A DNA stretch of 64,000 bases. It comes from an uncultured archaeon (GTDB lineage: Archaea > Thermoproteota > EX4484-205 > JAAOZP01). Location: contig CALIBN010000024.1 in the NCBI GenBank assembly GCA_938045545.1, forward strand, positions 6,274 to 70,273, in the 5' to 3' direction. How positions within the stretch are numbered: position 1 is the stretch's first letter; the number at the start of each line of letters is the position of its first letter. Position numbers and translations under genes: made by a program. The notes beneath the pieces are model-generated. The model was not told the origin of the DNA and did no database searches. It saw only the letters and a program-made list of their open reading frames with translations. This document shows positions 4,027 to 62,184 of this stretch, one piece after another.

Positions 4027-4839
4027 TTAAACGTTTAAATCAAGCACGCTATATCTTAATTCTCCTCCTTCGACCCAGCATACTAGCAAATTGTTATTTT
4101 TCAACGGAGACCAGTTCCCCCTTTCTGTTTTCTCAGACGCGACTATAATATGATCCTTATCGATTTTGAAGCACATCTCGTATACCGGTGCGTCTCCGTA
4201 GCACATTGATGGACCAGGATTATACAGGTATCTCGTGAAGGCGTAGAGCCTGCTGCCGTCTGAGAATATCGTGTTCAAACTAGTGAACGGTGCCTCAAAC
4301 CTGCTGACCTTCTCCTCTAAAAATATTTCCATAAGTGTCTGCTCGACTTTTCTGAAGGCAGTTATCACATCACCCTCCTTCTCGATAAGGCTGAGCAGCA
4401 GGTAGAAGTATGTCTCACTATCGTTTCGCCCTTTAATTAGGCTCGCATAGGGACCCAGCCTCCTTGAAACCTCGTCGGGAATATTGATCGTGCCGTTGTG
4501 CGCTAAAACATATTTTGAATGGTTGAAAGGCTGAGAGTTTTCAAGCGATATGAGCATTTCTCGCACCAGCCCCCTTGGGTTGCTTGCTTTCCTCACGTGC
4601 GCGATGATTATCCTGCCCCTGGCGGCTTTAGCGGCCTTCTCAAACTCTTCCCTATCCTCGTAAACCGGCTTATCGCTTTTGAAGATTATTGGGGTGCTTC
4701 CTCCAAGGTAGAAGCCTATGCCCCAGCCGTCTGACTGTCTCCCTTTAAAAGCTTGCGCGAATAGGGAGCACTCAGAGTTTAGGAGATGGTTTTCAACACT
4801 GCCAGCTCTCGCGAAAATTGCCCCCAGGAGCCTGCACAT
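4027..4839 (-). CDS. Class II glutamine amidotransferase (EgtC/YafJ-like)
   Basis: N-terminal MCRL, DGWGIG, AHVRKAS, HNGTI, DSE, VASE. Confidence 0.9.
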   Translation of the reverse strand: MCRLLGAIFARAGSVENHLLNSECSLFAQAFKGRQSDGWGIGFYLGGSTPIIFKSDKPVYEDREEFEKAAKAARGRIIIAHVRKASNPRGLVREMLISLENSQPFNHSKYVLAHNGTINIPDEVSRRLGPYASLIKGRNDSETYFYLLLSLIEKEGDVITAFRKVEQTLMEIFLEEKVSRFEAPFTSLNTIFSDGSRLYAFTRYLYNPGPSMCYGDAPVYEMCFKIDKDHIIVASEKTERGNWSPLKNNNLLVCWVEGGELRYSVLDLNV

Positions 4840-6444: not shown

Positions 6445-8410
6445 CTATGTTTGAACTACGATTGGTATCGCCATATTCATCCTCGGCAGTAATGCTATTG
6501 CTTCACCCATTTTCAGCTCCTGAATTTTTAAGGCTTGCTCCTCGTTAAGGTGCATCGTATCCGCGATCTTTTCAACATCACTAGAGTACTGCAACCTAAG
6601 GCAAATTATAGTCCCGCACAATCCCAAGACATCTCTCGACACCGTTAATGGTCTCTGATCTATAAGCCAAACAGACTCTCCGAACTTCCTCATCTCCCTG
6701 AGCATCTTCTCCACTATGGTCTCCTGACCCTCAAACCTAGCTGGGGCGATGTTATGGGCTTCCTCGCAGACTATAACGTGCGGCAAACCCCTGTTGGGCT
6801 TCTTCCTTCTATAATCGTAAACCCGCTTCAGCATCATCCACGTAAATATGTTTGCATCCCTATCCGTATCCAAGTCGCTGAGATCAAAGATGACCATATT
6901 TGAGAGAAGCCTCTCCATCATCCCTTCCCGTTCACCGATTGCGTCAAAAACTTTCCCAAAACTTCCTTGAGTGAGCTCGCTCAACCTTCCTACTAGCGAG
7001 AACAGCTTGTCCCTAGCTTTTCCTGAAGGAAGGAACATCAGGTCTTCAGAGTCAACGCTCCTCTCGAGGGATTCCACGAAGTCTACGAAGTCTGGGCGTT
7101 TTTTCCTCTTTAACATACTTCAAATACATCCTCCTGAAAACGTGGGAAACCAATGGCCCGAACTCATCGGGCCAGGCCATCGCGAAGACCTCGCCCAGGA
7201 TCTTAGCATGGCCCTCTGGGTCACCGTGGTGCTCCAAGAGGTTTATCTTGGCGTTATTCGCATCGAGGACCAAGGCGTCATCGAATTCATCAACGTATTC
7301 CCCATGCCTGTCGAAGACCATCGCAAAACCTCCTAGCTCCCTGTATCTCCTCAGAAGTGCCTTTGTTAGAGTGCTCTTCCCTGAGCCCGGGACGCCGAAT
7401 ATCGCCATGTGAAGAGGCAGATCTTCTATGCCTATCTTAACCTCAATCCTCTTTCTCATAGATTCGTATATCCTACGAGTATTCCATTCCTCTCCAGCCC
7501 AGCTGGGTCAAAGGCCCCGAAGTCAACGATCCTCTTGGGCGTGTAAGATGCGCTCGGCGTTATGGGCTCCGGGAAGCTTACGAATGACGATAGCTCATTC
7601 GCTAGTTAGGTGGAGTCTTTTAGAATCCACGATTCCCCTGGCGAGAATGCTCCTCGCTACCCCACTTAGACCCAGCCAACCGGCCTCTTCCAGCTTAACT
7701 CCGTACGATGAGGAGAAGGCCGCTTTAACTGCCTCCACATAATTCCTCTGCTCAAGATAGGCTTGTTTAGGGCTTCTTGTTGAAGGACCTATCACGACGA
7801 TAATGGGAGAGCACGTCCAACACCCAACATCGTTGCTAATCCTTTCGTATCTCTGACGAAGCCTCTCGAGCTCTGTGGATTTGTCCAAGTCATACCCTAT
7901 GAGCTCTCCCCTGCTGTTATAGAGCCCCTTCTCCCTCAGCTTTCTGTAGGCTTTCGAGTACCGTAAGGAAATGCTCCTCTTCTTGGCCCAGAGGCTTAAC
8001 GCGTGGAAAACTCCCTTGCAAGACTTGGACGCAGAATCTCGGTGAGCAACCGGATTCTGCAGAGGATCTTAAAGCCTTTTCAAGCGCATCTTCTGGAATG
8101 TTGAGCTCATCTTCCTTTAATTTCATGGATAGGAAAGAGGCTGCGGAGACCCTTCGGCCTTTAAGCAGGATCAAGACATTCCTATGCTTTGAGATCGGTA
8201 GGCCTCCCAAGGGCCACAGGGCGGCCTCGGGGGAAGCCTCAAGAGCCTCTAGCTCAGCGCCCGGAAAGCCGGCGAGTACGCTGGCCCTCATCCTCGAGAA
8301 TATTTTACTGAGCCCTTCAATCGACCGGGATGCTGCTGAGAGCCTCGCCTCATAGTTAAACGGCTCGTAGGATACCGTGAACATACCTTCAAAGCCGGTT
8401 GCGGAGAGGC
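6445..8410 (-). pseudogene. Frameshifted paralog of the HerA/VirB4-like ATPase
   Basis: Four ORF fragments (7917-8417, 7595-7888, 7052-7459, 6445-7116) collinear with 16499-18694, including GVPGSGKS and IVCEEAH. Confidence 0.9.
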
Positions 8411-8483
8411 CATGCATGGCTTTTTCGCTAGGTACTGGCGCTAGCCAGGGCTATCGCTCCAAGCTCCCGGGAGGTGATGTGGA

Positions 8484-9529
8484 ATGTCTTCTCCGGAACC
8501 AGAGAATAGAGGTAACTATATCATAGCAAGGAAGACTATAAAGGCGAAGATACTTGAGCTGAAGAGGGAGGAAGAGGAACTCCTTAGGCGCGAGTACGAG
8601 AACTTCCAGCGCTATCTACAGGGCGAGAAAACAGTTCCGCTATATGCTGCTACTAAGCAACAAGCAGATAGACTCCTGAAGGAGCTGAACGGGAAGCTGA
8701 GGGAAAGGGAGTATCCACTAATACTGAGGAACGACACCTACCGAATTGAAATCGAGCAAAGCCCCTACTTGCTTAAGATACCCGTCTACGGTGTCTGGGG
8801 AGGGATAAGGGTTCCGATTAGGACCCACAACCCCATAACTAGCGATATGAGATGTAAGGAAGCTAAGGTAATCCACAAAGATAACGAGTGGTTCGTCTAC
8901 ATCTGCATCGAGAAGGAGGTTGAGAAGAGGATTCCGAGGAACATTTGGCCATAGATATGGGGATAAGGTGGATCGCTACGACAGTCAATTCCAGCAACCC
9001 GGTCCCAAAGTTTTACGGCAGGGAGCTGAGGAGGGTCAGGGGACGCTTCTTTTACCTAAGAAGAAGCCTTGCATTGAAGAAGGCATACGGAGCAATAAAG
9101 AAGATTGGTGATAGGGAGCGAAGGATGGTGAACGATATCCTGCATAAGATAAGCAGGAGGATGGTGGACGAGGCCTTGGAGACGGATGCGATGATCGCCA
9201 TGGGGAACTTGAAGGGAATTAGGGAAAATGATAAGGGCAAAGGTTCAACAGGAAACTCAATGGATTTCCATACTGGAAGCTCAGCAAGTTCATAGAGTAT
9301 AAGGCGAGGTGGCTTGGAATAAAAGTGATCAAAATAAACGAGAGGAACACTTCGAAGCTTTGCCATAGATGCGGAAAGAAAGGAATCCGCGATGGAAGCC
9401 TCTTCAAATGCCAGAGCTGCAACTACTCATGCGACGCAGACTACAACGGAGCAATGAACATAATGAAGCGGGCCATGCGCTATATGCGAATGGCAGGGGC
9501 TGAGTTGACACAGCCCATAACCCGGCAGG
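8484..9529 (+). pseudogene. tnpB: tnpB pseudogene with two frameshifts
   Basis: Fragments collinear with 14222-15265; single-base losses near 8944 and 9240; stop TAG changed to CAG. Confidence 0.9.
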
Positions 9530-9577
9530 ATGAACCCACAGGGCGACGAACCGGGAACCCCTAGCATGGGGATGTCA
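9492..9577 (+). ncRNA. TnpB omega-RNA scaffold / right end, copy 1
   Basis: GGGCTG-AGTTGACA-CAGCCC hairpin whose TGACA can pair with terminal TGTCA; CCCGG/CCGGG stem; homology with other copies ends at GATGTCA. Confidence 0.75.
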
Positions 9578-9580
9578 AAA

Positions 9581-11275
9581 CTAGCGCCGAGCCCCGTAGT
9601 CTTCACTGGTTTCTTTAGTAACCAGGTACTGCAGGTCGGTCTCAGGATCCTTAACCGGGATGATCCTTATTCCGCCGACCCTGCTCACCTTCTTCACGTT
9701 CTCCGGGTATTTCCCCCCGTGAAGGTGGAAGATTTTAACCCTGTGTCCTCTTTTAACGATCTGCTCTAGACAGGGAAGCGCCTCCTCAATGTTCTGCCAG
9801 CCGCAATCCGTTATAATGTTTATCAAAACCCTGTTCTCGCTCTCGGAGACGAGCCTCATGATCTCGTTTAGAGGAAGTATCGTCATTCCCCCGAAGTAGA
9901 GCGCTAAGGACAATTCCTTCTCAAGCGTCGAGCCCTGCCATTCTACAGAGTAGTAGTCTGTTGAGAAGGCTATTGAAGCTGTTTTCCCACCTATTCTCTC
10001 CACGGAAAGCAGGTTGATGAAGGCTGAGGTTGCAGCATTATGGATAACCTCCTGCATGCTTCTGCTGGCGTCTAAAACTATTAGGCTTGAGGGCACGTTG
10101 CTTACCGTCATGCTGCTCCCCTTCCCCTTAACCTCGCTCTGCCATTTCACCGTGTTTATTTCAATCCGCAGCCTTCCCTCGTCGAGGCTGGCCTCCAGAT
10201 CAAGGTCTTCAACCTCGTCCTCAATGTTCCAATCCATGGGGTAGCTGGATATTGCTAGATTCGGCTCAGGCCTCCTGCCCTCCTCAAGATATACGAGCAT
10301 CGTCCTCCTCGCCCTAGCCCTATACCAGCATACTTTCCAGAAGAGCTCTTCAACCATCTCGTTAGTCAACCCGGTGTACGGCTTGCTTACGCTCGTAGGC
10401 AGCCTGGGCTCCTGCCCGCCCTCAGGCTTAGCGCGGCGTATTCCCCCGGCTTCTCCCCTTCTGGTCTTTTTCCCACCCGCCGCTTTACCGCTTTTCCTAA
10501 TCGTCTTCTTAATCTCCTCAAGCTCAGAGTTCTTCAGCCTCGATTTAACCCAGTACTCGTAAAACCTTCTCGCCTCCTCGCTGTTTTTTATTCCCCCAAG
10601 CACCTCGTTAATCTTCTCAATAGTGTTCCTGCTCAAGTCCTCCCTTAAGGGGATGCTCGCGCCCGGGCCGGCAAGCTGCCTCGGTATTTCGGCTTTAACC
10701 CTGTTTAAAGAGAGGATGAGCGCCACCAGCCTCACTTTACTAAACCAGTTTCTTTCAGACCTCATAACCATGCTGATTTGCCTAGCCACGTTTTCAACGT
10801 TATAGTCGTATTCCCTATGGCTCTTTCTCAAGATGTGCCTGTAGGCTGCCTGAATATACCTTCCAACCCCCCTCTGCGAAGTGTTTAGAAACTGTTCGAC
10901 GTGATAAGGTGTTTCCCCGAACCTGCTTAAAAGGTAGAAGCAGTCAACGTTCAAGTCGGCGAACAGCAAGACTGAGAAATACGCGGTGCCCCAGTCCTTG
11001 CACGCACCGTAAGCCTCCTTCACCAGCTCGTAAGCCGTCCTAATGTCATACGGGCAGTAGTGCAGATGAGCAATCTCATGCCTGATGACGGACCTAAGAT
11101 ATTTTTCACCGTCAACCTTCTTCGGAACCGCCTCCGGAGAAATATGTACTTTTGAATCCACCACGAAAAAGGGTTTGCCACCTTCACCGTCATGCTTCAC
11201 TTCCAGTTCGCACGGTGGGAAATAGAGTTCACTCCTAACCTGCGCGAAAATCCTTCTTACTTCTTCATCGTCCAT
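9581..11275 (-). CDS. vWA-domain protein with N-terminal HExxH metallopeptidase-like domain
   Basis: RHEIAHLH; MIDAS DASRSM, GMT, ITDCG. Confidence 0.75.
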   Translation of the reverse strand: MDDEEVRRIFAQVRSELYFPPCELEVKHDGEGGKPFFVVDSKVHISPEAVPKKVDGEKYLRSVIRHEIAHLHYCPYDIRTAYELVKEAYGACKDWGTAYFSVLLFADLNVDCFYLLSRFGETPYHVEQFLNTSQRGVGRYIQAAYRHILRKSHREYDYNVENVARQISMVMRSERNWFSKVRLVALILSLNRVKAEIPRQLAGPGASIPLREDLSRNTIEKINEVLGGIKNSEEARRFYEYWVKSRLKNSELEEIKKTIRKSGKAAGGKKTRRGEAGGIRRAKPEGGQEPRLPTSVSKPYTGLTNEMVEELFWKVCWYRARARRTMLVYLEEGRRPEPNLAISSYPMDWNIEDEVEDLDLEASLDEGRLRIEINTVKWQSEVKGKGSSMTVSNVPSSLIVLDASRSMQEVIHNAATSAFINLLSVERIGGKTASIAFSTDYYSVEWQGSTLEKELSLALYFGGMTILPLNEIMRLVSESENRVLINIITDCGWQNIEEALPCLEQIVKRGHRVKIFHLHGGKYPENVKKVSRVGGIRIIPVKDPETDLQYLVTKETSEDYGARR

Positions 11276-12904: not shown

Positions 12905-14176
12905 GTGATGAGAACATCCAGAATACCGGGCTTCTACAATTTAAGCGTGGCGGAGAGGCTGAGCAGGATAGTAGAGTACGCCGGGCTGACGGAGGAGGAG
13001 GCTAAACTCCTCTCGAAAGAGGGCAATCTAAGCCTAGAGACCGCTGACAGAATGGTTGAAAACGTGATTGGGACAATGGCTTACCCCTTCTCTGTTGCAC
13101 TCAACTTCCTCATAGATGGTAAAGAGTATATCGTCCCCATGGTTATAGAGGAAACCTCCGTCGTAGCGGCCGCCAGCAACGCTGCTAAAATGACTAGGGC
13201 GAAAGGAGGGATATTCACGGACGCCACAGAGCCCATCATGATAGGGCAGGTGCAACTGACTGGAGTAACCAACCCCCTCACGGCTAAAATGAAGATCCTT
13301 GAACACAGGGACGAAATATTGAAGCTTGCCAACGATCAGGATCCTGTTCTCGTAAAGCTCGGCGGAGGCGCTAGAGATGTTGAAGTTAGAGTGGTGGATA
13401 GTAACGTGGGCCCAATGGTGATAACGCATCTCCTAGTTGACGTTAGGGATGCGATGGGGGCGAACGCTGTCAACACTATGTGCGAAGCCGTAGCACCCCT
13501 GATAGAGAAAATAACCGGTGGAAAAGTATATTTGAGGATAATATCGAACCTTGCCGATAGAAGACTCGTAAGGGCTAGAGCGACGGTTGCCAAAGAGGAG
13601 GTCGGCGGCGAGGAGGGTGTCGACGCAATAGTGAAAGCATGGGCTTTCGCAGCAAGCGACCCCTATAGATGCTCAACACATAATAAGGGGATTATGAACG
13701 GTGTCATTGCAGTTGCTCTGGCTACTGGGCAGGACCATCGAGCTATAGAGGCGGGTGCCCACGCTTTCGCTGCAAGGACGGGCAAATACCTGCCTTTAAC
13801 CGTCTGGGAAAAGGATGAGAATGGCGATCTCGCTGGAACGCTGGAGATGCCCATGGCGGTTGGCTTAATAGGCGGGGCAACTAAAACTCACCCTATAGCG
13901 AGGATCGCGATTAAAATCCTTGGCGTTAAAACCGCGACGGAATTGGCGAGAGTGATGGGCGCCGTAGGTCTAGCTCAGAATCTTGCAGCCCTTAGAGCGT
14001 TGGCGCTCGAGGGGATTCAAGCAGGCCATATGAGGCTTCACGCGCGTAACATAGCGATTATGGCGGGTGCCACGGGAGACCTGATTGAGAAGGTCGCTGA
14101 GCAGATGATTAAGGAAAGGAAGATAAGGTTCGATAGGGCCCAGGAGCTCGTCAAGGAATTCACGGAGAAGAAGTGA
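12905..14176 (+). CDS. hmgA: Class II HMG-CoA reductase
   Basis: ENVIG, EETSVVAA, DAMGAN, THNKGIMNG, GIQAGHMRLHARN. Confidence 0.95.
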   Translation: MMRTSRIPGFYNLSVAERLSRIVEYAGLTEEEAKLLSKEGNLSLETADRMVENVIGTMAYPFSVALNFLIDGKEYIVPMVIEETSVVAAASNAAKMTRAKGGIFTDATEPIMIGQVQLTGVTNPLTAKMKILEHRDEILKLANDQDPVLVKLGGGARDVEVRVVDSNVGPMVITHLLVDVRDAMGANAVNTMCEAVAPLIEKITGGKVYLRIISNLADRRLVRARATVAKEEVGGEEGVDAIVKAWAFAASDPYRCSTHNKGIMNGVIAVALATGQDHRAIEAGAHAFAARTGKYLPLTVWEKDENGDLAGTLEMPMAVGLIGGATKTHPIARIAIKILGVKTATELARVMGAVGLAQNLAALRALALEGIQAGHMRLHARNIAIMAGATGDLIEKVAEQMIKERKIRFDRAQELVKEFTEKK

Positions 14177-14258
14177 CATCCCCATGCTAGGGTTCCCGGT
14201 TCGTCGCCCTGTGGGTTCATCCTACCGGGTTATGGGCTGTGTCAACTCAGCCCCTGCC
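14174..14258 (-). ncRNA. TnpB omega-RNA scaffold / right end, copy 2 (predicted guide CTTCTTCTCCGTGAATTCC)
   Basis: Near-identical to 9492-9577; TGACA/TGTCA pseudoknot; overlaps the tnpB 3' end. Confidence 0.8.
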
Positions 14259-15265
14259 ATCCACATGTAGCGGATGGCTCGCTTCATTATGTTCATCGCT
14301 CCGTTGTAGTCTGCGTTGCATGAGTAGTTGCAGCTCTGGCATTTGAAGAGGCTTCCTTTGCGAGTTCCTCTATTTCCGCATTTATGGCATAGCTTCGAAG
14401 TGTTCTTCTCATTTACTTTTATTACTTTGATCCCGAGCCATCTAGCCTTGTACTCTATGAGCTTGCTGAGCTTGCGATAGGGGAATCCATTTAGTTTCCT
14501 GTTGAACCTCTTGCCCCTATCGCCATCCCTGATCCCCTTTAAGTTCCCCATTGCGATCATCGCATCCGTCTCCAAGGCCTCGTCCACTATCCTCCTGCTT
14601 ATCTTATGCAGAATATCGTTCACCATCCTTCTTTCCCTATCTCCAATTTTCTTGATCGCGCCGTATGCCCTCTTCATGGCGAGGCTTCTTCTTAGGTAAA
14701 AGAAGCGTCCCCTGACCCTCCTCAGCTCCCTGCCGTAAAACTTTGGGACCGGGTTGCTGGAATTGACTGTCGTAGCGACCCACCTTATCCCCATATCTAT
14801 GGCCAAGACATTCTTCGGGATCCTCTTCTCAACTTTCTTCTCAACGCAAATGTGGATGAACCACTCGTTGCCCCTGCGAATCACCTTGGCCTCCTTAAGC
14901 CCCATATCGCCCGTTATGGGCTCATGAGTCCTAATCGGAACCCTTATCCCTCCCCAAACGCCGTAGACGGGTATCTTAAGCAAGTAGGGGCTTTGCTCGA
15001 TTTCAATTCGGTAGGTGTCGTTCCTCAGCATTAGCGGATACTCCCCCTCCTTCAGCTTCCCGTTCAGCCTCCTCAGAAACCTCTCCGCGGCTTGCTTCGT
15101 GGCAGAGTATACCATAGCGGATTTCTCTCCCCTCAGGTAGCGCTGGAAGCTCTCGTACTCGCGCCTAAGGAGTTCCTCTTCCTCCCTCTTAAGCTCAAGT
15201 ATCTTCGCCTTTATAGTCTTCCTAGCTGTAACATAGTTACTTTTCTCTGATTCTGAAAAAGACAT
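14222..15265 (-). CDS. tnpB: TnpB RNA-guided endonuclease with rearranged RuvC-II
   Basis: LAIDMG (RuvC-I), AMGNL plus VNEKNTS (relocated Glu), CHKC/CQSC zinc ribbon, NADYNGAMNI (RuvC-III); SD AGGAGGTGG. Confidence 0.92.
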   Translation of the reverse strand: MSFSESEKSNYVTARKTIKAKILELKREEEELLRREYESFQRYLRGEKSAMVYSATKQAAERFLRRLNGKLKEGEYPLMLRNDTYRIEIEQSPYLLKIPVYGVWGGIRVPIRTHEPITGDMGLKEAKVIRRGNEWFIHICVEKKVEKRIPKNVLAIDMGIRWVATTVNSSNPVPKFYGRELRRVRGRFFYLRRSLAMKRAYGAIKKIGDRERRMVNDILHKISRRIVDEALETDAMIAMGNLKGIRDGDRGKRFNRKLNGFPYRKLSKLIEYKARWLGIKVIKVNEKNTSKLCHKCGNRGTRKGSLFKCQSCNYSCNADYNGAMNIMKRAIRYMWMAGAELTQPITR

Positions 15266-15279
15266 TTAGCACCACCTCC

Positions 15280-15430
15280 TGGGAGCCGGAGCGATAGCCC
15301 TGGCTAACGCTGATACTTAGCGAAAGCCACGCTGGGCCTATACCCGATTAAAAGCGGGTTCCAGCCACTACAAAGCAGGCTAAGAGGTTCTTTCTAAAAC
15401 TCCCTGTTTCATGCTCCTCCGCAGCTCCCA
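15280..15430 (-). ncRNA. Conserved ~150-nt structured 5' leader upstream of tnpB
   Basis: Closing stem TGGGAGC/GCTCCCA; begins ~26 nt after TATATA (15453-15458); compensatory changes against the copy at 61099-61250. Confidence 0.65.
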
Positions 15431-15466
15431 ATTATGTTAAACAGATGGGAGGTATATAGATATTCT

Positions 15467-15510
15467 GATGGCATATGGATGTCACTCGGATGGAACACGG
15501 ATGACACACG
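15467..15510 (+). repeat. Array A: four 11-bp tandem repeats, consensus GATGNMACACG
   Basis: GATGGCATATG GATGTCACTCG GATGGAACACG GATGACACACG. Confidence 0.85.
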
Positions 15511-15589
15511 GCCGCCTTTTTAAATATGCGGAGGGGGCGTTGCAACGGAGTAAAGCATTTCTACCTCTCCGAATGTTAAAAGTAGGCAA

Positions 15590-16390
15590 ATGGGGATGCT
15601 GGGACACGTAGTGAGGCTGTTTTCCGCTGTAATCATTGGACTGCTGTTTTCATACCTCGTTTATCGGGCCTTGACCACTCTAGATAGTTTCCTAGCATCG
15701 ATCCTCTCTCTCGGCCTCATGATGAGCATGCCCCTCACGCTAATCCTGGTTTTCTACAACAGGCTTCGCTGGGGAGCATTTTTCTTCGTGGCCGTCTGGC
15801 TCCTCTACGCCTCAGCGGTATGGCTCTACATGCTGGCCGGCTTTTTCACAACAGTCTTTCATGGACAGGCTTGGATACCCGTTTTCATATTAAGCATCGG
15901 CGGAATAGCCTTTCTCTTAGTTGTTCTCAGGAGGAGAGGGATAGGCCTCCCGCAGGTATTTCAAGGGAAAGGGGAGAGCTTGAAAGGTGTTAAAGAGATT
16001 CAGGAGGTTGCTGAGGAGCCCGTAGAAGGGGTCGTTGAGCCCGAGCCCCAAGAGGAGCCGGATTTCTCCCGAACCATGGAACTCCTGGATGAGGCCCACT
16101 GCAGGATCCTTGAAACCCTATTGGAGTCGGGCAGCCCGTATTCGAAGAAGGAGTTAGCCAAGGCTATTGGGGCAACATACAGAAGGGTTCTTAGGGCGGT
16201 CGAGGAGCTTGAGAAGCTTGGGCTCGTCGAGGTTAAGGAAGCACCGAGGAGTGCGAGGGGCTCCTCCGTAGTTCATGCCGTCAAGCTATCCCCAGCTGTA
16301 TCTAGGAGGAGCGAGCTGGCCAAGGAGATGGTTAAGAGGAGGATGGAGGAGCTCGGGGCGGTTAAGGGCAGGGCTAAAACAAGCGCATAA
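15590..16390 (+). CDS. Membrane-anchored winged-helix DNA-binding protein
   Basis: About four N-terminal TM helices, acidic linker, C-terminal wHTH (RILETLL...SKKELAKAIG.TYRRVLRAVEELEKLGLVEV). Confidence 0.8.
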   Translation: MGMLGHVVRLFSAVIIGLLFSYLVYRALTTLDSFLASILSLGLMMSMPLTLILVFYNRLRWGAFFFVAVWLLYASAVWLYMLAGFFTTVFHGQAWIPVFILSIGGIAFLLVVLRRRGIGLPQVFQGKGESLKGVKEIQEVAEEPVEGVVEPEPQEEPDFSRTMELLDEAHCRILETLLESGSPYSKKELAKAIGATYRRVLRAVEELEKLGLVEVKEAPRSARGSSVVHAVKLSPAVSRRSELAKEMVKRRMEELGAVKGRAKTSA

Positions 16391-16404
16391 AACCCATCGT
16401 TTGC

Positions 16405-16459
16405 CGTGTGTTATCCGTATGACATCCGTGTTCCATCTGAGTGCCATCCGTGTTACATC
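16405..16459 (-). repeat. Array B: five 11-bp repeats, inverted relative to array A
   Basis: Minus strand GATGTAACACG GATGGCACTCA GATGGAACACG GATGTCATACG GATAACACACG. Confidence 0.85.
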
Positions 16460-16498
16460 GGGATGCTTATGAATGGGGATATCGATGATTGAACGGAA

Positions 16499-18694
16499 TT
16501 GATCGAGGAGTTCAGAAGGGTAGTCTACGAGAGGGTTGAGGTGAGCAGCTTTAGGAAGCGCGTTGAGCAAGCCCAGCCTAAGCGAGTTAAGGCCTTCAAA
16601 ATCCTCGGAAGTACGGTTGTCCTAGGTAAAGACGTTTTCAGCGTTTCGGGGAGGCTTGTTTCAGAGATAAGGCTCAGGTCGGCTGATTACGAGGAGAATA
16701 AATCCGAGGTTAAGATGCTTCAAGGCCTTTCGGCAACGGGCTTCGAGGGAATGTTCACGATATCCTATGAGCCCTTCAACTATGAGGTGAGGTTCTCAAT
16801 AACCTCGAAATCCCCAAGGGAGCTTAGACTCATGGCTTCAAGGCTTAAGGCCTCAATACTGGCAAGCAGTCCCGGAGCTGAGCTCGAATCGCTTAGAGCT
16901 TCCATCGATAACGTGCTATGGCCCCTAGGAGGCTTCCCGGTCTCCAGGCGGGAAAACAGGTTGATCCTGCTTAGGGGTAAGGAAGTCTCAGCAGCATCAT
17001 TCCTGTTAATTAAGCTGAAAGAGGAGATGATTAGCCTTCTCGAGGATGGCCTTGAGAACGCCTTAAGGTCCTCTGCGGAATCAGGATGTTCGTTCAGGTT
17101 CTGCGTCCCGGTCAAATCATGCAGAGGATTCGCCCACCTTCTAAACACATGGGTAAAGAAGAAGGATATTCTATCCAGATATTCCAAGGCCTACAGGGAG
17201 CTTAGGGAGAATGGGCTTTTTAACAGCAGGGGCGAGCTCATAGGCGTTGACCTAAGTAAGTCAACTAAGCTTGAGCTTCTCCGCTCTCAGTACGAGAGGC
17301 TTAACGGACAAACGGGATGTTGGACATGCTCTCCGATAATAGTAGTGATAGGAACTCCCGAGAGGGACCCTAGGCAGGCTTGTGAAAAACAGAGGGAGTA
17401 CGTTGAAGCTGTCAAGGCATCTTTCTCATCATCCTACAGGGTTAAGATCGAGGAGGCTGGGTGGCTGAACCTAGGGGAGGTAGCGAGAAGCATACTCGTC
17501 AGGGGGATAACGAGCTTGAACAAACTTCATGTAACCGGCGATGAGTTATCTTGTTTCATAAGCTTTCCCAAGCCAATAACGCCAAGCATATCCTACATGC
17601 CGAAGAAGATCGTTGAATTCGGAGCCTTCGACCCGGCTGAGCTCAGGAGGAATGGTATACTCCTAGGATACTATGAATCCATGAGAAAGAGGTTTGGGGT
17701 CAGAATAGGGATAGAAGACCTTCCCCTACATTTAGCTATATTCGGCGTCCCGGGCTCAGGGAAGAGCACTCTAACAAAGGCACTTCTGAGGAGATACAGG
17801 GAGCTAGGAGGTTTTGCGATGGTCTTCGACAGGCATGGAGAGTACGTTGACGAATTCGATAATGCCCTAGTCCTCAATACGGATAATGCCAGGATAAACC
17901 TCCTAGACCACCACGGTGACCCGGAGGGCCATGCTAAGATCCTGGGCGAGGTCTTCGCGATGGCTTGGCCGGATGAGTTCGGGCCGTTGGTTTCACACGT
18001 TTTCAGGAAGATGTACCTGAAGTACATTAAAGGAGTCAGCCACCCCGATTTCCTGGAATTCGTAGAATTCCTCGAGAAGGACGCCAACTCGGAGGACCTG
18101 ACGTTCCTTCGCTCCGGAAAGGCTAGGGATAAGCTGTTCTCGCTAGTGGGGAGGCTTAGCGAGCTAGCCCAGGGGAGCATTGGAAAGGTGTTCGACACGG
18201 TTGGGGGGCAAGGGGGCGTGATGGAGAGGCTGCTCTCGGGCATGGTCGTCTTCGATTTAAGCGGCATGGATACGGATAGGGATGCGAACATACTTACATG
18301 GTTGATGCTGAAGCGAATCTACGATTATAGAAGGAAGAAGCCCAACAGGGGTTTGCCGCACGTTATAGTCTGCGAGGAGGCTCATAACATCGCTCCAGCT
18401 AGGTTTGAGGGCCAGGAGACCATAGTTGAGAAGATGCTTAAGGAGATGAGGAAGTTCGGCGAGTCTGTTTGGCTTATAGATCAGAGACCATTAACGGTGT
18501 CGAGGGATGTCTTGGGATTATGTGGGACCATAGTCTGCCTGAGGCTACAATACTCGAGCGACGTTGAGAAGACCGGGGACACGATGCACCTGAACGAAGA
18601 GCAGAGGCTGAGGCTGCAGGAACTCGAGTTGGGGGAGGCGATAGCATTGCTGCCGAGAATGAAGACTGCGATACCAATCACCGTCCAGCTGTAG
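16499..18694 (+). CDS. HerA/FtsK-superfamily (DUF87, VirB4/CedB-like) ATPase with long N-terminal domain
   Basis: GVPGSGKS Walker A, FDRHGEY, IVCEEAH Walker B, EMRKFG, IDQRP. Confidence 0.88.
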   Translation: MIEEFRRVVYERVEVSSFRKRVEQAQPKRVKAFKILGSTVVLGKDVFSVSGRLVSEIRLRSADYEENKSEVKMLQGLSATGFEGMFTISYEPFNYEVRFSITSKSPRELRLMASRLKASILASSPGAELESLRASIDNVLWPLGGFPVSRRENRLILLRGKEVSAASFLLIKLKEEMISLLEDGLENALRSSAESGCSFRFCVPVKSCRGFAHLLNTWVKKKDILSRYSKAYRELRENGLFNSRGELIGVDLSKSTKLELLRSQYERLNGQTGCWTCSPIIVVIGTPERDPRQACEKQREYVEAVKASFSSSYRVKIEEAGWLNLGEVARSILVRGITSLNKLHVTGDELSCFISFPKPITPSISYMPKKIVEFGAFDPAELRRNGILLGYYESMRKRFGVRIGIEDLPLHLAIFGVPGSGKSTLTKALLRRYRELGGFAMVFDRHGEYVDEFDNALVLNTDNARINLLDHHGDPEGHAKILGEVFAMAWPDEFGPLVSHVFRKMYLKYIKGVSHPDFLEFVEFLEKDANSEDLTFLRSGKARDKLFSLVGRLSELAQGSIGKVFDTVGGQGGVMERLLSGMVVFDLSGMDTDRDANILTWLMLKRIYDYRRKKPNRGLPHVIVCEEAHNIAPARFEGQETIVEKMLKEMRKFGESVWLIDQRPLTVSRDVLGLCGTIVCLRLQYSSDVEKTGDTMHLNEEQRLRLQELELGEAIALLPRMKTAIPITVQL

Positions 18695-19844: not shown

Positions 19845-20378
19845 CATTCCCCCGGTTGAAGCCGGTGGGATTCCCGGTTCGTCGCCCTCAGGGCTCATCC
19901 CCTCGAGTTATAGCGCGCGCCCTATGGCCATTAGGAGGCTTACCACTCTCGAAGCATAAGAATGCTTTAAGCCTGTTTAGGGGACGGAAGATCTCGGCAG
20001 CCTCATCCCTATTCATGAGGTTAGAAGATGCTCTCGAACTTCCTGAGGATGCTCTTGAGAATGCTTTAAGGTCCTCCGAAGAATCCGGTTGCTCGCTCAG
20101 GTTCTGCATCCCAGTTAAGTCTTGCAAGGGAATTTTCCATGCTTTAAGCCTGTGGGCCAGAAGGAAAATTATCTCTTCGCAGTACTCTAGGGCTTACAGG
20201 ATGTTGAGGGGAAAGGGACTCTACAACAGCAGAGGGGAGCTCATAGGCTACGACCTTGGGAAATCCGCCGAACTCGAAAGGCTTCCGGGATACGAGAAGC
20301 TCGACGGTAAAGCTGGATGCGGAAATGCTCCCCTACAATCGTCGTGATAGGCCCTTCAGCAAAAAGCCCTGAACGAGC
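19842..20378 (-). mobile_element. Cassette copy 3 remnant: right end fused to an internal ATPase fragment
   Basis: 19842-19900 matches the right end and keeps a longer hairpin (CCCACCGG-CTTCAA-CCGGGGG); ~19915-20378 encodes the ALWPLGG...NSRGELIG ATPase segment. Confidence 0.8.
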
Positions 20379-48081: not shown

Positions 48082-48178
48082 TTTCAGCAATACCGTTACG
48101 CGGGGTGAAATAAGTTTTACAGTGGATTTAAGACGGGAGAACACATTTAAATCCAGTTTTTAATAGCAGGCAGCCGTA

Positions 48179-49471
48179 ATGGCTCAGGCGCTTGACGATA
48201 AGGCTTCGGCAAAAAGGTATAGGAGGAACCTTCTAGTCCTTCTCATAGACTGGATGACTTATGGTTCAGCGATGAACTTCGTCTCCATGGCTACTGTCCT
48301 GCCCGCCTTCATAATGAGCCTCACCGACTCTAAGATCGCTGTGGGATTAGTTACGACGATATCGTTTTTGGGATGGAACTTTTTCCAACTGGTTTCCGCT
48401 GGAAGAATAGAAATGAGGAAGTTTAAGAAGCCTTTTCTACTGAGAATAACTCCGGGTGAAAGAATACCGTGGCTCATAGTTGCTTTTTCAACAGTCCTGC
48501 TCGCCGAAAGAGATCCTTTACTCGCCCTCCTTATATTCTACGCGTCGTACATTACGGTGAACGTTTCTTCGGGCCTCTGCACCACCGCTTGGCTGGATAT
48601 TGTTGCTAAGACGATTCCTGAGGAGAAGAGGGGCTTCTTCTTCGCGGCCGCAAACCTTGTCTCATCAGTTTTAGGGCTGGCGAGCGGCTTCGCGGTGGCT
48701 TTCTACATGAGTTTCTTCAAATACCCTGTAAACTTTTTCATGTGTTTCCTAACGGCGTTCATACTCGTCTCCCTATCTTGGGTTGACATCACGTTCATAG
48801 ACGAGCCGCCGTCAAACGTGGTTGGGAAGCCCAGCACCTTCAGGGAATACGTCGGCAAGATTCCGAGGATCATTAAGAACGATAGAAACTATCTTCTTTA
48901 CACGGTTTCCGGGATAGTGGGCTCCTTCGGGGGGATCGCCTCCTCCTTCTATACCGCGTACGCTATAGACAGGTTTAAAGCAGGAGGCTTCGAAATAGGA
49001 TTGTTCACATCCGCCTCGGTTGGAACACAGATACTCGCAAACGTTCTGTGGGGCCTAATTCAGGAAAGACACGGCCATAAGACGGTGCTCGTAGCAGGAG
49101 GCGTAGCAGGGCTCCTGGCGACCATTATCGCCCTGCTCGCCACCTCGCCGAATCATTTCCTGCTGGTTTTTGCCTTTTCAGGAGCGTCTTTCAGCTCATT
49201 CATGGTTTCAGGCTTTCCGATGCTTATGGAGATGGCTCCGGAGGAGGATAGGCCGACTTACATAGGTTTAAACAGCGCTCTGAGAGCGCCTTCGCAAGCC
49301 GTCGCCCCTATTGTTGGAGGACTGGTTATTGAAGAATACGGTTACCCACCGGCCTTCTTAGCCTCAGCGTTATTCTCAACCGCCAGCACGGTTATCTTGG
49401 CACGGGTCAGGCAGAAGCCCCGTGGCCCAGCTGGGTCCTCCATCCTAGGAAAGCTTTTAAAGCGTTTTTAA
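48179..49471 (+). CDS. MFS transporter
   Basis: About 12 TMs; EEKRGFFF and EEDRPTYIG loops. Confidence 0.85.
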   Translation: MAQALDDKASAKRYRRNLLVLLIDWMTYGSAMNFVSMATVLPAFIMSLTDSKIAVGLVTTISFLGWNFFQLVSAGRIEMRKFKKPFLLRITPGERIPWLIVAFSTVLLAERDPLLALLIFYASYITVNVSSGLCTTAWLDIVAKTIPEEKRGFFFAAANLVSSVLGLASGFAVAFYMSFFKYPVNFFMCFLTAFILVSLSWVDITFIDEPPSNVVGKPSTFREYVGKIPRIIKNDRNYLLYTVSGIVGSFGGIASSFYTAYAIDRFKAGGFEIGLFTSASVGTQILANVLWGLIQERHGHKTVLVAGGVAGLLATIIALLATSPNHFLLVFAFSGASFSSFMVSGFPMLMEMAPEEDRPTYIGLNSALRAPSQAVAPIVGGLVIEEYGYPPAFLASALFSTASTVILARVRQKPRGPAGSSILGKLLKRF

Positions 49472-60494: not shown

Positions 60495-60993
60495 TTAAAA
60501 GGAGACATTAATGGGTGTTGCTGTTCTCATCCTCGGCAGCAGCGCTATCGCCTCTCCCAACCCGAGCTCCTGTAGCTTCAGCCTCTGCTCCTAGCTTAGG
60601 TGTATCGTATCAGCAATCTTTTCAACCTCGCTCTCAATACTGTTAAGGGCCTCTGGTATATTGGCCAAACCGATTCCCCGAACTTCCTCATCTCCTTAAG
60701 CATCTTCTCAACTATGGTCTCCTGCCCTTCGAATTTGGCTGGGACGATGTTGGGCCTTCTCGCAGACTATGACGTGCGGCAAACCTCCGTCAGGCTTCCT
60801 CCTCCTATAATCGTAAACCCGCTTAAGCATCATCCACGTAAATATGTTTGCATCCTTATCAGTATCCATGTAAGTCAAAAAATTACCATGTCTGAGAGGA
60901 GCCTCTCCATCATGCCCTCCTGCTCGCCGACAGTATCGAATACCTTTTCGATGCTTCCTCGGGTTAACTTGCTCAGCCTTCCTACCAGTGAGC
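60495..60993 (-). pseudogene. C-terminal fragment of the HerA/VirB4-like ATPase
   Basis: DANIFTWMMLKRVYDY...LPHVIVCE...LPRMRTATPI with frameshifts. Confidence 0.85.
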
Positions 60994-61018
60994 ACACCTT
61001 TCCACATATAAAGGCGAC

Positions 61019-61062
61019 CGTGCGCCACCCGTATTCCGTCCGCGTGCCATCTGAGCGCCATC
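61019..61062 (-). repeat. Array C: four decayed 11-bp repeats (counterpart of array A)
   Basis: Minus strand GATGGCGCTCA GATGGCACGCG GACGGAATACG GGTGGCGCACG. Confidence 0.75.
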
Positions 61063-61098
61063 GGAATGTCTATATACCGTCCATCTGTTTAAGATAAT

Positions 61099-61250
61099 TG
61101 GGAGCTGCGGAGGAGCGTGAAACAAGGAGTTTTCGAAGAGGCATCCTGGTCCGTTTTGTAGTGGCTAAAGCCCGCCTTTAATTGGGCATAGGCCACGCGT
61201 GTTTTCGCTAAAACACTAGCGTTAGCTAGGACTATCGCTCCAAGCTCCCG
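61099..61250 (+). ncRNA. Second full copy of the structured tnpB leader
   Basis: TGGGAGC...GCTCCCG after TATATA; homologous to 15280-15430. Confidence 0.65.
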
Positions 61251-61533
61251 GGAGGTGGTATAGAATGTCTTCTCTGGAATCAGAGAATAGAAGAATAGAG
61301 GTAACTATATTATAGTAGAAAAACGATGAAGATCCTGGGGCTGAGCGAGAAGGAGGGAAAGGCATGAGTACGAGAATTTCCAGCGATACTTGCAGGGCGA
61401 CGAACCGGGAACTCCTCACTAGGAGATGTCAAAGGAGGAAAATTAACGAATTATTGAGAAGCTAATTCTGAAATAATCGTGTTGAAAAGCCGGACTAAAG
61501 CTTTTTATATTAACTGTAATGCCTATATTGGCT

Positions 61534-61786
61534 ATGAGTACTATATCTGTGACTGAAGATGTGGAAAAAGGCTCTGCTAAAAATAGCTTCCGAACTCCAG
61601 TTGAAATGGGGGAGAAGAGTGGATTTGAACGAAGCCATAAGGTATTTAATTGCTAGAGGAGTTAAACGACCAGACTTATTGGAACGGGCTTGTCAACCGA
61701 TTCCAGGTTTTGAGGAAGCCTATAAGGAGTTAAAGGGGGAAAGGGCGAAAGATGAGGAAAGGGCTTGCGGGAAGTTTAGCCTTTGA
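61534..61786 (+). pseudogene. Frameshifted VapB-type antitoxin
   Basis: MSTISVTEDV from ATG 61534 continues as KKALLKIASELQ only after a frameshift near 61563. Confidence 0.7.
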
Positions 61787-62184
61787 CGCGAGCGTACTTC
61801 TAGAGCTTTTATACTCCACCCCCACACGGTTCAAAATTGAAGGAGGCTATTAAAAGCGAAACGGTTTATGGAAACATATCTGAACTATGTGTCGCAGAAG
61901 TAGGATATGTCCTTTGTAGGAAGCTAGGCGGTGGGGAAGCCAGAGTCAGGATCAAAAACCTACTGGACTCAGGCTATTTTTTCGTACACGATGATTCCGA
62001 GCTTATCGAGCATGCTGCAGAATACAAGTGTAAAAGAAGACTTTCCTTGGCTGATTGCTTTACCTTGGCTCTAGCTAAGAAAATAGATGCGCCCGCCCTC
62101 TTCGCTAGGAGGGAGGCCGAATTAATCAAAGAAATTTCAAGCGAGCCTTTTGATGTAGAAATCCTGTTCTTGGAGGACTTTTAG
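61752..62184 (+). pseudogene. vapC: Frameshifted PIN-domain VapC toxin
   Basis: MRKGLAGSLAFDASVLLE from ATG 61752 is out of frame with LSLADCFTLALA in the 61837 ORF. Confidence 0.75.

Follow-up and report, generated by a model that had tools for sequence, protein, structure and literature searches.

The 64-kb window analyzed here, that is, the whole stretch of 64,000 nucleotides (nt) from contig CALIBN010000024.1 of an uncultured archaeon (assembly GCA_938045545.1), carries two short arrays of 11-bp repeats that face each other in inverted orientation across a gene for a membrane-anchored protein with a domain of the winged helix-turn-helix (wHTH) type. These arrays are non-random, far beyond chance, and are confined to a module of about 4.5 kb that also encodes a TnpB protein and a HerA-type ATPase. 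We predict that the wHTH domain is probably the factor that binds them. Further, we propose, as a reading with an even chance of being right, that the arrays are cooperative wHTH sites, which would control three promoters and hold the locus at the membrane ATPase. The anatomy, its conservation, the co-variation, the strict co-occurrence of the two proteins and one natural fusion are observed; the binding itself, its regulatory sign and whatever the ATPase may do to DNA bound in this way are what we infer here.

Two phased arrays enclose the gene for a membrane-anchored wHTH protein

The arrays, the gene between them and the promoter-like boxes beside them are arranged as follows (window coordinates; units in the register GATnnnnnnnn).

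15451-15466, minus strand: outward promoter-like box of the leader and tnpB, consisting of TATATA (15453-15458) and the anchor ATTCTGA/ATTCCGA, which is in the position of a B recognition element (BRE) and touches the first unit
15467-15510, plus strand: array A, four tandem 11-bp units, read directly and recovered by Tandem Repeats Finder and a pattern scan; from the outside inward GATGGCATATG (15467-15477), GATGTCACTCG (15478-15488), GATGGAACACG (15489-15499) and GATGACACACG (15500-15510)
15517-15526, plus strand: the TATA-like box of the wHTH gene itself, TTTTTAAATA, starting 6 nt inside array A
15590-16390, plus strand: gene for the membrane-anchored wHTH protein, 266 amino acids (aa), supported by Pfam, an AlphaFold2 (AF2) model and a PDB match
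16405-16459, minus strand: array B, an 11-bp unit repeated five times in tandem and inverted relative to array A, placed after the wHTH stop codon and before the ATPase promoter; from 16459 to 16405 GATGTAACACG (16449-16459), GATGGCACTCA (16438-16448), GATGGAACACG (16427-16437), GATGTCATACG (16416-16426) and GATAACACACG (16405-16415)
16460-16474, plus strand: outward promoter-like box of the ATPase gene, consisting of the anchor GGGATGC and TTATGAAT

An earlier note, made from the letters of this DNA, had described four plus five inverted repeats around the wHTH gene, and the exact units bear this out: both arrays share the consensus GATGgcACaCG, with a period of exactly 11 and zero indels, and Tandem Repeats Finder reports period 11 at 15477-15511 and at 16423-16459. 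Together, the two arms form a 50-nt inverted repeat, 80% complementary, whose halves lie 903 nt apart. A two-unit pattern (at most one mismatch) has 8 matches in the window against 0.05 expected, and at least 8 were reached in 0 of 100 shuffles; genome-wide, 19 of 22 two-unit matches fall inside copies of the module. The motif scan of the whole 2.03-Mb genome that the note had suggested is equally clear, since a generic three-unit pattern has 10 matches, all 10 of them in module copies, against 1, 1, 1, 0 and 0 in block shuffles.

The spacing of 7 to 8 nt that had been given between the arrays and their TATA-like boxes is likewise correct: TATATA lies 8 nt outside array A; at array B the corresponding distance, to TTATGA (16467-16472), is 7 nt, and this box precedes the TTG start of the ATPase gene (16499) by 27 nt. 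Of the two outward boxes, that of the leader comes close to the consensus, and that of the ATPase gene is weaker. Array A also adjoins the wHTH gene's own box, as had been claimed. A reading of the arrays as replication-origin iterons was considered separately and rejected: a Rep/Orc gene is missing, and what the arrays enclose is a gene and not an AT-rich unwinding element.

The arrays are conserved across homologous loci and change together with the recognition helix

The comparison covers 10 distinct loci that could be read on both flanks (the window, L039, L034, L036 with the near-identical L038, L037, L035, L031, L042, L040 and L041) and the partial loci L033, L043, L032 and L044; scans with alignment A2 of metagenomes and of genomes gave 3 and 5 loci, respectively. 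The earlier note had proposed looking in such loci for co-varying repeats, and they are there: arrays occur in all 10, with a unit that shifts along with the recognition helix of the wHTH domain. In 8 of the 10 they stand on both sides of the wHTH gene, and in the remaining two (L040 and L041) on the ATPase side only, where the array follows the wHTH stop codon and precedes the ATPase promoter; the ATPase-side array is thus present in every locus. In most loci, the 44-nt windows that score best in a blind scan for 11-nt periodicity are those flanking the wHTH gene. In all arms, the units read GAT... from the outside inward, directly after an anchor (A/T)YTCYGA that is itself preceded by a TATA-like box, and in all arms examined the array is 7 to 8 nt from this outward box. 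Since the start of the units is tied to the anchor in every arm, the distance between array and promoter is fixed, even as the rest of the spacer diverges. The equivalent wHTH box of other loci, of the CTTTTTA type, sits inside the leader-side array.

This conservation bears on the view that the repeats are functionless products of slippage or duplication. Short tandem repeats can slip, and the number of units does range from 3 to 8, with some units of 10 nt in L036. Nevertheless, position, polarity, period and GAT core are kept at loci whose wHTH proteins are only 29 to 47% identical to that of the window (29 to 31% in L040 and L041, the most distant), while the spacers diverge, and we regard slippage as scarcely credible.

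The unit itself falls into distinct types. One group (the window, L039 and L037; 29 units) has GATGgcACaCG and a second (L034, L035, L031, L036 and L042; 26 units) GATcGtaCtcA, and L040 and L041 have, behind an initial unit like GATGGAATATC, units of the GCnTGCATAT type. At its start, the recognition helix shifts with the unit, reading, in turn, G-ATY(R/K)R; K-TTYPR, K-ATYSR or K-TTYKK; and ASYKR..LSS, the last with GCnTGCATAT units. Hence, the unit sequence appears to track the N-terminal end of the recognition helix; this co-variation is suggestive rather than statistical, because it comes from about six lineages that are not independent. It points to the wHTH domain, which is the sole recognizable sequence-specific DNA-binding domain of the module, as the binder of the arrays. 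Another module protein could instead take this role, such as the N-terminal domain of the ATPase or the protein driven by the leader, with the wHTH domain binding elsewhere. In favor of this, the arrays are accompanied just as strictly by the ATPase as by the wHTH protein, the ATPase-side array is the one found in 10 of 10 loci, and the N-terminal domain of the ATPase (~380 aa) is of no known fold or family. However, it is the wHTH recognition helix that varies with the unit, and the leader-driven gene is too inconstant (TnpB, TnpB-like or unrelated) to be a common array binder. We therefore consider such a different binder improbable. Taking these findings together, the earlier proposal that the arrays are cooperative sites of an activator is supported in part: they are a conserved functional component of the wHTH locus, at a fixed spacing from the boxes and with a co-varying unit, as would be expected of cognate binding sites, and the wHTH protein may act as an activator or as a repressor.

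The wHTH protein is paired with a HerA-clade ATPase

In the AF2 model, the wHTH protein has four transmembrane (TM) helices (residues 3-115), a disordered acidic linker (116-156), the wHTH domain (159-233) and a C-terminal helix (241-265). The wHTH domain matches the Pfam families HVO_A0114 and HTH_24 above cut-off, and its nearest solved relatives are Lrs14/AbfR (PDB 6cmv) and MarR proteins. Pfam and NCBIfam gave no sensor domain, the disordered linker being seen instead. The family is tiny. Of the 401 genomes sampled for the phylum, 10 have a member; within the genus, so do 5 of the 16 other species; and 5.8 billion proteins include 8 clusters of it. The named records that carry it are Brockarchaeota or Thermoproteota metagenome-assembled genomes (MAGs). 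The present genome has one intact wHTH protein, of the GATGG type. No relative of the wHTH protein or of the ATPase was found in IMG/VR.

The gene beyond array B encodes the apparent partner of this protein.

16499-18694, plus strand: HerA-clade ATPase, 731 aa, TTG start, with an N-terminal domain of ~380 aa that belongs to no family

Its central P-loop region matches DUF87 (PF01935) above cut-off (6.9e-13) and HerA in the PDB (4d2i; 1.6e-28). The closest NCBIfam model is CedD (1.2e-30, far below cut-off), and since no NCBIfam equivalog cut-off is reached, we leave the protein unassigned to CedD or to canonical HerA. TrwB/TraG P-loop models match weakly, and the FtsK_SpoIIIE model matches just the distant ATPases of L040 and L041, below cut-off; by these sequence matches, the ATPase belongs to the HerA clade and not to the FtsK/SpoIIIE clade. 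No known fold or family was matched by the N-terminal domain, which has 11 relatives in 1.84 billion representative proteins. The AF2 model of the ATPase is poor (mean pLDDT 51) and unusable for a fold search, and a prediction of its complex with the wHTH protein scored 0.00 and gives no verdict.

The N-terminal domain occurs in 8 of the 401 genomes of the phylum, and all 8 also have the wHTH protein. Further, a single chain of 1018 aa (P0017) joins a hydrophobic N-terminus, the wHTH domain (hhalign 96.5%, E 8e-10), the N-terminal domain of the ATPase (E 5.8e-20) and a DUF87 HerA ATPase. It is a singleton, known from one assembly and from a Logan contig 17.7 kb in length. Such a fusion speaks for a single machine in which the wHTH protein and the ATPase may work together. 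A tether to the membrane ATPase, which the earlier note offered as its alternative, accordingly gained support from the fact that the two occur only together and once in one polypeptide.

The module is a multi-copy, decaying element

A point overlooked by the earlier note is that the locus is one copy of an element that is present many times in its genome. BLAST of the module (14177-18694, ~4.5 kb: scaffold-like right end, tnpB, leader, array A, wHTH gene, array B and ATPase gene) against its own genome yields one intact copy, i.e., this locus, and many collinear decayed ones. On one side, it extends ~45 nt beyond the end of tnpB and finishes on an HMG-CoA reductase gene's stop codon, and on the other it ends at the ATPase stop. 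Exactly the same limits are seen in two full copies of one related genome (L034 and L036; 71.6% identical). In 5 of 5 module-free relatives, homology ends at the HMG-CoA reductase stop codon and synteny is lost downstream, so that this empty-site comparison fixes the boundary on the tnpB side alone. The decayed copies and derivatives are as follows.

6460-9577, minus strand: pseudogenized second copy with tnpB and ATPase; a 1.38-kb deletion took both arrays and the wHTH gene
19922-20351 of the window, and on contig C8: ATPase fragments
~60511-61397 of the window: deletion derivative with the 3' part of the ATPase gene, array, leader and a 5' remnant of tnpB
61019-61062, minus strand: decayed array A of this derivative, four units
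Contig C4: copy with tnpB and ATPase kept, internal deletions
C29:46837-48099: copy keeping tnpB, leader and array
C2 ~48112-48399, C2 ~87256-87410, C14 ~4490-4670, C29 ~10700-10850, C29 contig end 71718-72076 and C4 1-314: six mini-derivatives

The decayed repeats at 61019-61062 that had been noted before are thus real, with four units, though what had been missed is that they belong, as array A, to a copy of the whole module that is reduced by deletion. The six mini-derivatives are reduced further, each consisting of an array, its outward promoter and the 5' part (40 to 150 nt) of the leader joined to the 3' end of tnpB and the scaffold, with a different downstream flank in each case. They look like stand-alone guide-RNA cassettes under an array-controlled promoter. 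As they keep array and promoter without the wHTH and ATPase genes, they fit sites of a trans-acting factor.

Plasmid, integrase, replication and pilus genes are all missing from the module, neither it nor its immediate surroundings have a recombinase or transposase, and it was not found in IMG/VR. It is known from Brockarchaeota-like archaea only, and it is undescribed in the literature searched on TnpB, HerA and Brockarchaeota mobile elements (supplementary files lying outside that scope) and likewise in the family libraries used. Three decayed pieces (6460-9577, 19922-20351 and 60511-61397) lie within the same 64-kb window, which suggests local duplication or repeated insertion. Adjoining the last of them, at 61559-62184, is a small open reading frame (ORF) followed by a PIN-domain ORF, a VapBC-like pair.

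A proposed role for the arrays in transcription and membrane attachment

In our proposal, each 11-bp unit, i.e., each helical turn, would offer one putative site, and the 4 to 5 wHTH domains on an array would be aligned on one face of the DNA. Array A stands on the putative promoter of the leader and tnpB and array B on that of the ATPase gene, array A being also at the wHTH gene's own. As the arrays abut all three promoters, their occupancy would set the transcription of all three units, with autoregulation of the wHTH gene. Further, as the wHTH protein is a 4-TM membrane protein with an apparent ATPase partner, bound arrays would hold the DNA of the element at the membrane beside the ATPase.

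Several observations weigh against this proposal. MarR/Lrs14-type wHTH proteins are usually symmetric dimers on palindromes, and the units of the arrays are purely direct repeats without a dyad, a poor fit to such a dimer. It is possible that each dimer bridges one unit of array A and one of the inverted array B, thereby looping out the wHTH gene; L040 and L041 manage with a single array. Concerted evolution of the inverted repeats could partly mimic the co-variation. The arrays of the C2, C14 and C29 mini-derivatives are of the GATCG type, and with the one intact wHTH protein of this genome being of the GATGG type, some arrays would have no cognate protein here. The promoter elements were identified by eye from the sequence and are putative boxes. 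Finally, the P0017 fusion is a single case that could be a gene-call artefact, and a regulator fused to the enzyme that it regulates would also fit regulation alone.

The opposite emphasis would make the arrays chiefly a handle or loading site for a split membrane translocase, in which the TM-wHTH protein and the HerA-type ATPase would recognize their own element by its polar arrays, much as TraB does with the 8-bp repeats of clt or FtsK with KOPS, and pump, segregate or transfer it, control of the promoters being incidental. The ATPase is of the HerA/FtsK superfamily, its closest curated model is the DNA-translocating CedD, and it has the weak TrwB/TraG matches noted above. The strict co-occurrence of the wHTH protein and the N-terminal domain and their one fusion are as expected of such a machine, and the order of membrane anchor, flexible linker and wHTH domain recalls the layout of FtsK and TraB. 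The opposed polarity of the arrays would fit a directional signal, and the module, multi-copy and patchy even among the 16 other species of the genus, behaves like a mobile element. However, a pure loading site would have no need of the fixed 7 to 8 nt to a TATA-like box, and the mini-derivatives keep array and promoter with no ATPase nearby. Further, the module has none of the genes of a plasmid or transfer system listed above, it was not found in IMG/VR, and its ATPase is of the HerA and not the FtsK/SpoIIIE clade. On balance, we think it rather unlikely that translocation is the chief role.

The wHTH cassette has been inverted in one lineage

Within a locus, the two arms tend to be homogenized: they are identical over 86 nt in L042, 96% identical over 55 nt in L034 and 77 to 81% elsewhere (80% over 50 nt in the window). 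The 86-nt perfect inverted repeat of L042 (7036-7121 and 7914-7999) comprises the TATA box, the array and an inner TATA-like stretch on both arms, and hence its ATPase-side arm also has an inward box, antisense into the wHTH gene. In L037 and the partial loci L033 and L043, the wHTH cassette is flipped between the arrays together with its own promoter box, so that the wHTH gene of this lineage runs in the same direction as the leader and diverges from the ATPase gene. Inversion by exchange within the arrays must thus have happened at least once. The earlier suggestion that the arrays might invert the gene finds weak support in these flipped cassettes, and the search for inverted forms that it called for was negative: Logan contigs of locus-holding runs, an assembly type that drops rare variants, have no strand-changing joint and show the window's orientation alone. 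One Logan contig spans 15198-17100 in that orientation, and the sole joint seen, 15165 to 16838, is that of a paralogous deletion copy.

These facts could also be read as a sign that the arrays are recombination or transposition ends, either multi-site ends resembling terminal inverted repeats (TIRs) or crossover sites of an invertible cassette, on which a recombinase would act. An inverted-repeat pair around one gene, the perfect arms of L042 and the flipped cassettes are all in keeping with this, as are the position of the arrays at the upstream (left-end) side of the tnpB unit and the shared end point, ~20 nt inside the array, of three derivatives (C29a, C2 and that at 61000 of the window). 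Against it, a recombinase or transposase is lacking in and beside the module, and the Y1 transposase TnpA (PF01797) has 0 matches in this 92%-complete genome, in a search that matched control genomes. A single array is all that L040 and L041 have, the contigs, which drop rare forms, show no inverted joint, and the cassette is always flanked by the same two units, which indicates that it does not itself move. We hence consider recombination ends a decidedly improbable function, and retain the proposal that the arrays are wHTH sites.

tnpB, its leader RNA and the scaffold-like right end

The unit driven outward from array A comprises three parts, with further leader copies elsewhere.

15266-15432, minus strand: conserved structured leader RNA, ~165 nt, between the outward promoter and the tnpB start
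14222-15265, minus strand: tnpB, 347 aa, NCBIfam guided_TnpB above cut-off
14177-14330, minus strand: 3' end of tnpB and omega-RNA-scaffold-like right end, ending on the HMG-CoA reductase stop codon
61097-61271 of the window, plus strand; L039:8319-8494; L034:1978-2152; L037:5992-6164; L035:2864-3030; L031:1929-2096: other copies of the leader

The TnpB protein retains the RuvC-I Asp and the RuvC-III Asp, and the canonical RuvC-II Glu position is occupied by Gly (IAMGNLKG against the usual ..EDL.., residues ~236-241) in 4 of 4 module TnpBs (the window, L039, L034 and L036). In the distant TnpB-like proteins of L042 and L031, the EDL Glu is kept and the RuvC-III Asp is missing. The module TnpBs may thus be nuclease-dead, in the manner of TldR, or the Glu may be relocated. 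Indeed, a single missing catalytic residue can be spurious, the residue sitting elsewhere, as described in PMC10705468, and for this reason the inactivity is a lead and not a result.

In the leader, a closing helix (GGGAGCUG../..AGCUCCC) leads directly into GGAGGUG and then the start codon (ATG for tnpB), with compensatory changes in 9 of 33 predicted pairs among 9 sequences. Rfam has no family for the window at its gathering thresholds, nor for 14100-15520 at E values up to 1, and no RNA sequencing runs covering 14900-17100 are listed. The leader may be a translational riboregulator or a new noncoding RNA. It lies upstream of TnpB in five loci, and L042 has an AT-rich leader-like version before its distant TnpB-like protein. 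Elsewhere it drives proteins other than TnpB: L037:6158-7372 (404 aa), L043:5533-6717 (394 aa), L035:1074-2675 (533 aa) and L031:155-1975 (606 aa). Neither Pfam nor the PDB has a match for the 404-aa and the 533- to 606-aa proteins, the 404-aa protein giving just weak leads, to Cas4 and PD-(D/E)XK, in the C-terminal third of the chain. The module's third gene thus appears to be exchangeable. With its canonical RuvC-II Glu missing and unrelated genes behind the leader in other loci, the naming of tnpB as an effector in the earlier note should be revised.

The scaffold-like right end has ~15 related copies in the genome, each with a different flank; at the locus itself (14170-14224), its end ..GGGGATGTCAC overlaps the TGA stop of the HMG-CoA reductase gene. 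The guide-like flanks of these ~15 copies have no second site in the genome beyond chance at up to 3 mismatches, and two of them have no exact match in IMG/VR. One could go further and picture the whole module as an archaeal DNA-handling device, in which a split membrane HerA-type pump reads its own arrays, and these also drive a possibly nuclease-dead TnpB with its guide RNA as well as solo guide-RNA cassettes, thereby coupling RNA-guided recognition to membrane translocation, segregation or exclusion. We think this quite unlikely.

Comparison with known systems

As cis-elements, the arrays are of a known type, that of phased iteron-like operator or centromere arrays, and it is the module carrying them that is undescribed in the literature searched. 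Should the wHTH domain bind them, the system would be a clean natural archaeal case of a membrane-anchored regulator with a re-programmable code, an 11-bp unit that tracks the recognition helix, and among TnpB-bearing elements with a transcription factor of their own, these arrays would be the first cis-element to be described. If they are merely an autoregulatory operator, they would be an ordinary regulatory element of a rare mobile module.

The TnpB half of the module resembles IS200/IS605 elements in its TnpB match above cut-off, its conserved multi-copy 3' or right end and its internal-deletion derivatives, which recall miniature inverted-repeat transposable elements (MITEs). It differs from them in that no TnpA was found in the genome, and in having upstream a transcription factor-type array, a structured leader and two extra genes. 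The missing canonical RuvC-II Glu is shared with some TldRs (PMC10705468). With the promoter and array cassettes, which would drive just an omega-RNA-like scaffold, one could directly test how TnpB guide RNAs are regulated.

Among soluble regulators, the best sequence and fold match to the C-terminal domain is with Lrs14/AbfR and MarR-type proteins (6cmv), which are ~100 to 150 aa in length. We know of no Lrs14/MarR-type regulator with a 4-TM anchor or phased direct-repeat arrays. Membrane-bound one-component regulators, such as ToxR/CadC, are a further parallel. Among them are ArnR/ArnR1 of Sulfolobus, which likewise combine a DNA-binding domain and a membrane anchor in one polypeptide with sites at the target promoter, the ArnR boxes lying at -43 to -84, just upstream of BRE/TATA (PMC6396743). 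As described there, ArnR has an N-terminal HTH, HAMP and sensor domains and two C-terminal TM helices, and acts on two 15-bp inverted-repeat boxes; the present protein, in contrast, has four N-terminal TM helices and no recognizable sensor domain, with 4 to 5 direct 11-bp units per array.

On the side of the ATPase, TraB of Streptomyces conjugative plasmids is a membrane ATPase that reads short direct clt repeats via a wHTH domain (PMC4447253). TraB/clt, as well as FtsK-KOPS, share with the module a membrane-bound ATPase of the FtsK/HerA superfamily, a wHTH domain and short direct repeats on the element itself, recognition being here predicted from co-variation. According to that account, TraB unites an FtsK-clade motor and a C-terminal wHTH in one chain and has repeats of 8 bp, whereas the module has a separate wHTH and anchor protein (N-terminal in the fusion), a HerA-clade ATPase and 11-bp repeats on promoters. 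The wHTH-ATPase fusion suggests that archaea may have a HerA-family machine of a new kind, bound to the membrane and targeted by sequence. Archaeal systems of DNA transfer or segregation beyond Ced/Ted are barely known.

Finally, the arrays themselves resemble parC of plasmid R1, which consists of two sets of five 11-bp iterons and is both operator and centromere (PMC2241845). In this ParR/parC system, as that source describes it, clusters of ~11-bp repeats at the protein's own promoter are bound by one protein unit per repeat, and the same sites serve as an operator and as the handle of an NTPase machine, a double role like the one that we propose for the present arrays; here, 4 and 5 units stand by TATA-like boxes. 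The two differ in geometry, the parC clusters being mutually direct and flanking a 39-bp promoter and the present arrays being inverted and flanking a 0.9-kb gene. They also differ in their players: in R1, the binder is the ribbon-helix-helix (RHH) dimer ParR and the motor the actin-like ParM, whereas here, with no plasmid context seen, the candidate binder is a membrane wHTH protein and its apparent partner a HerA/DUF87 ATPase.

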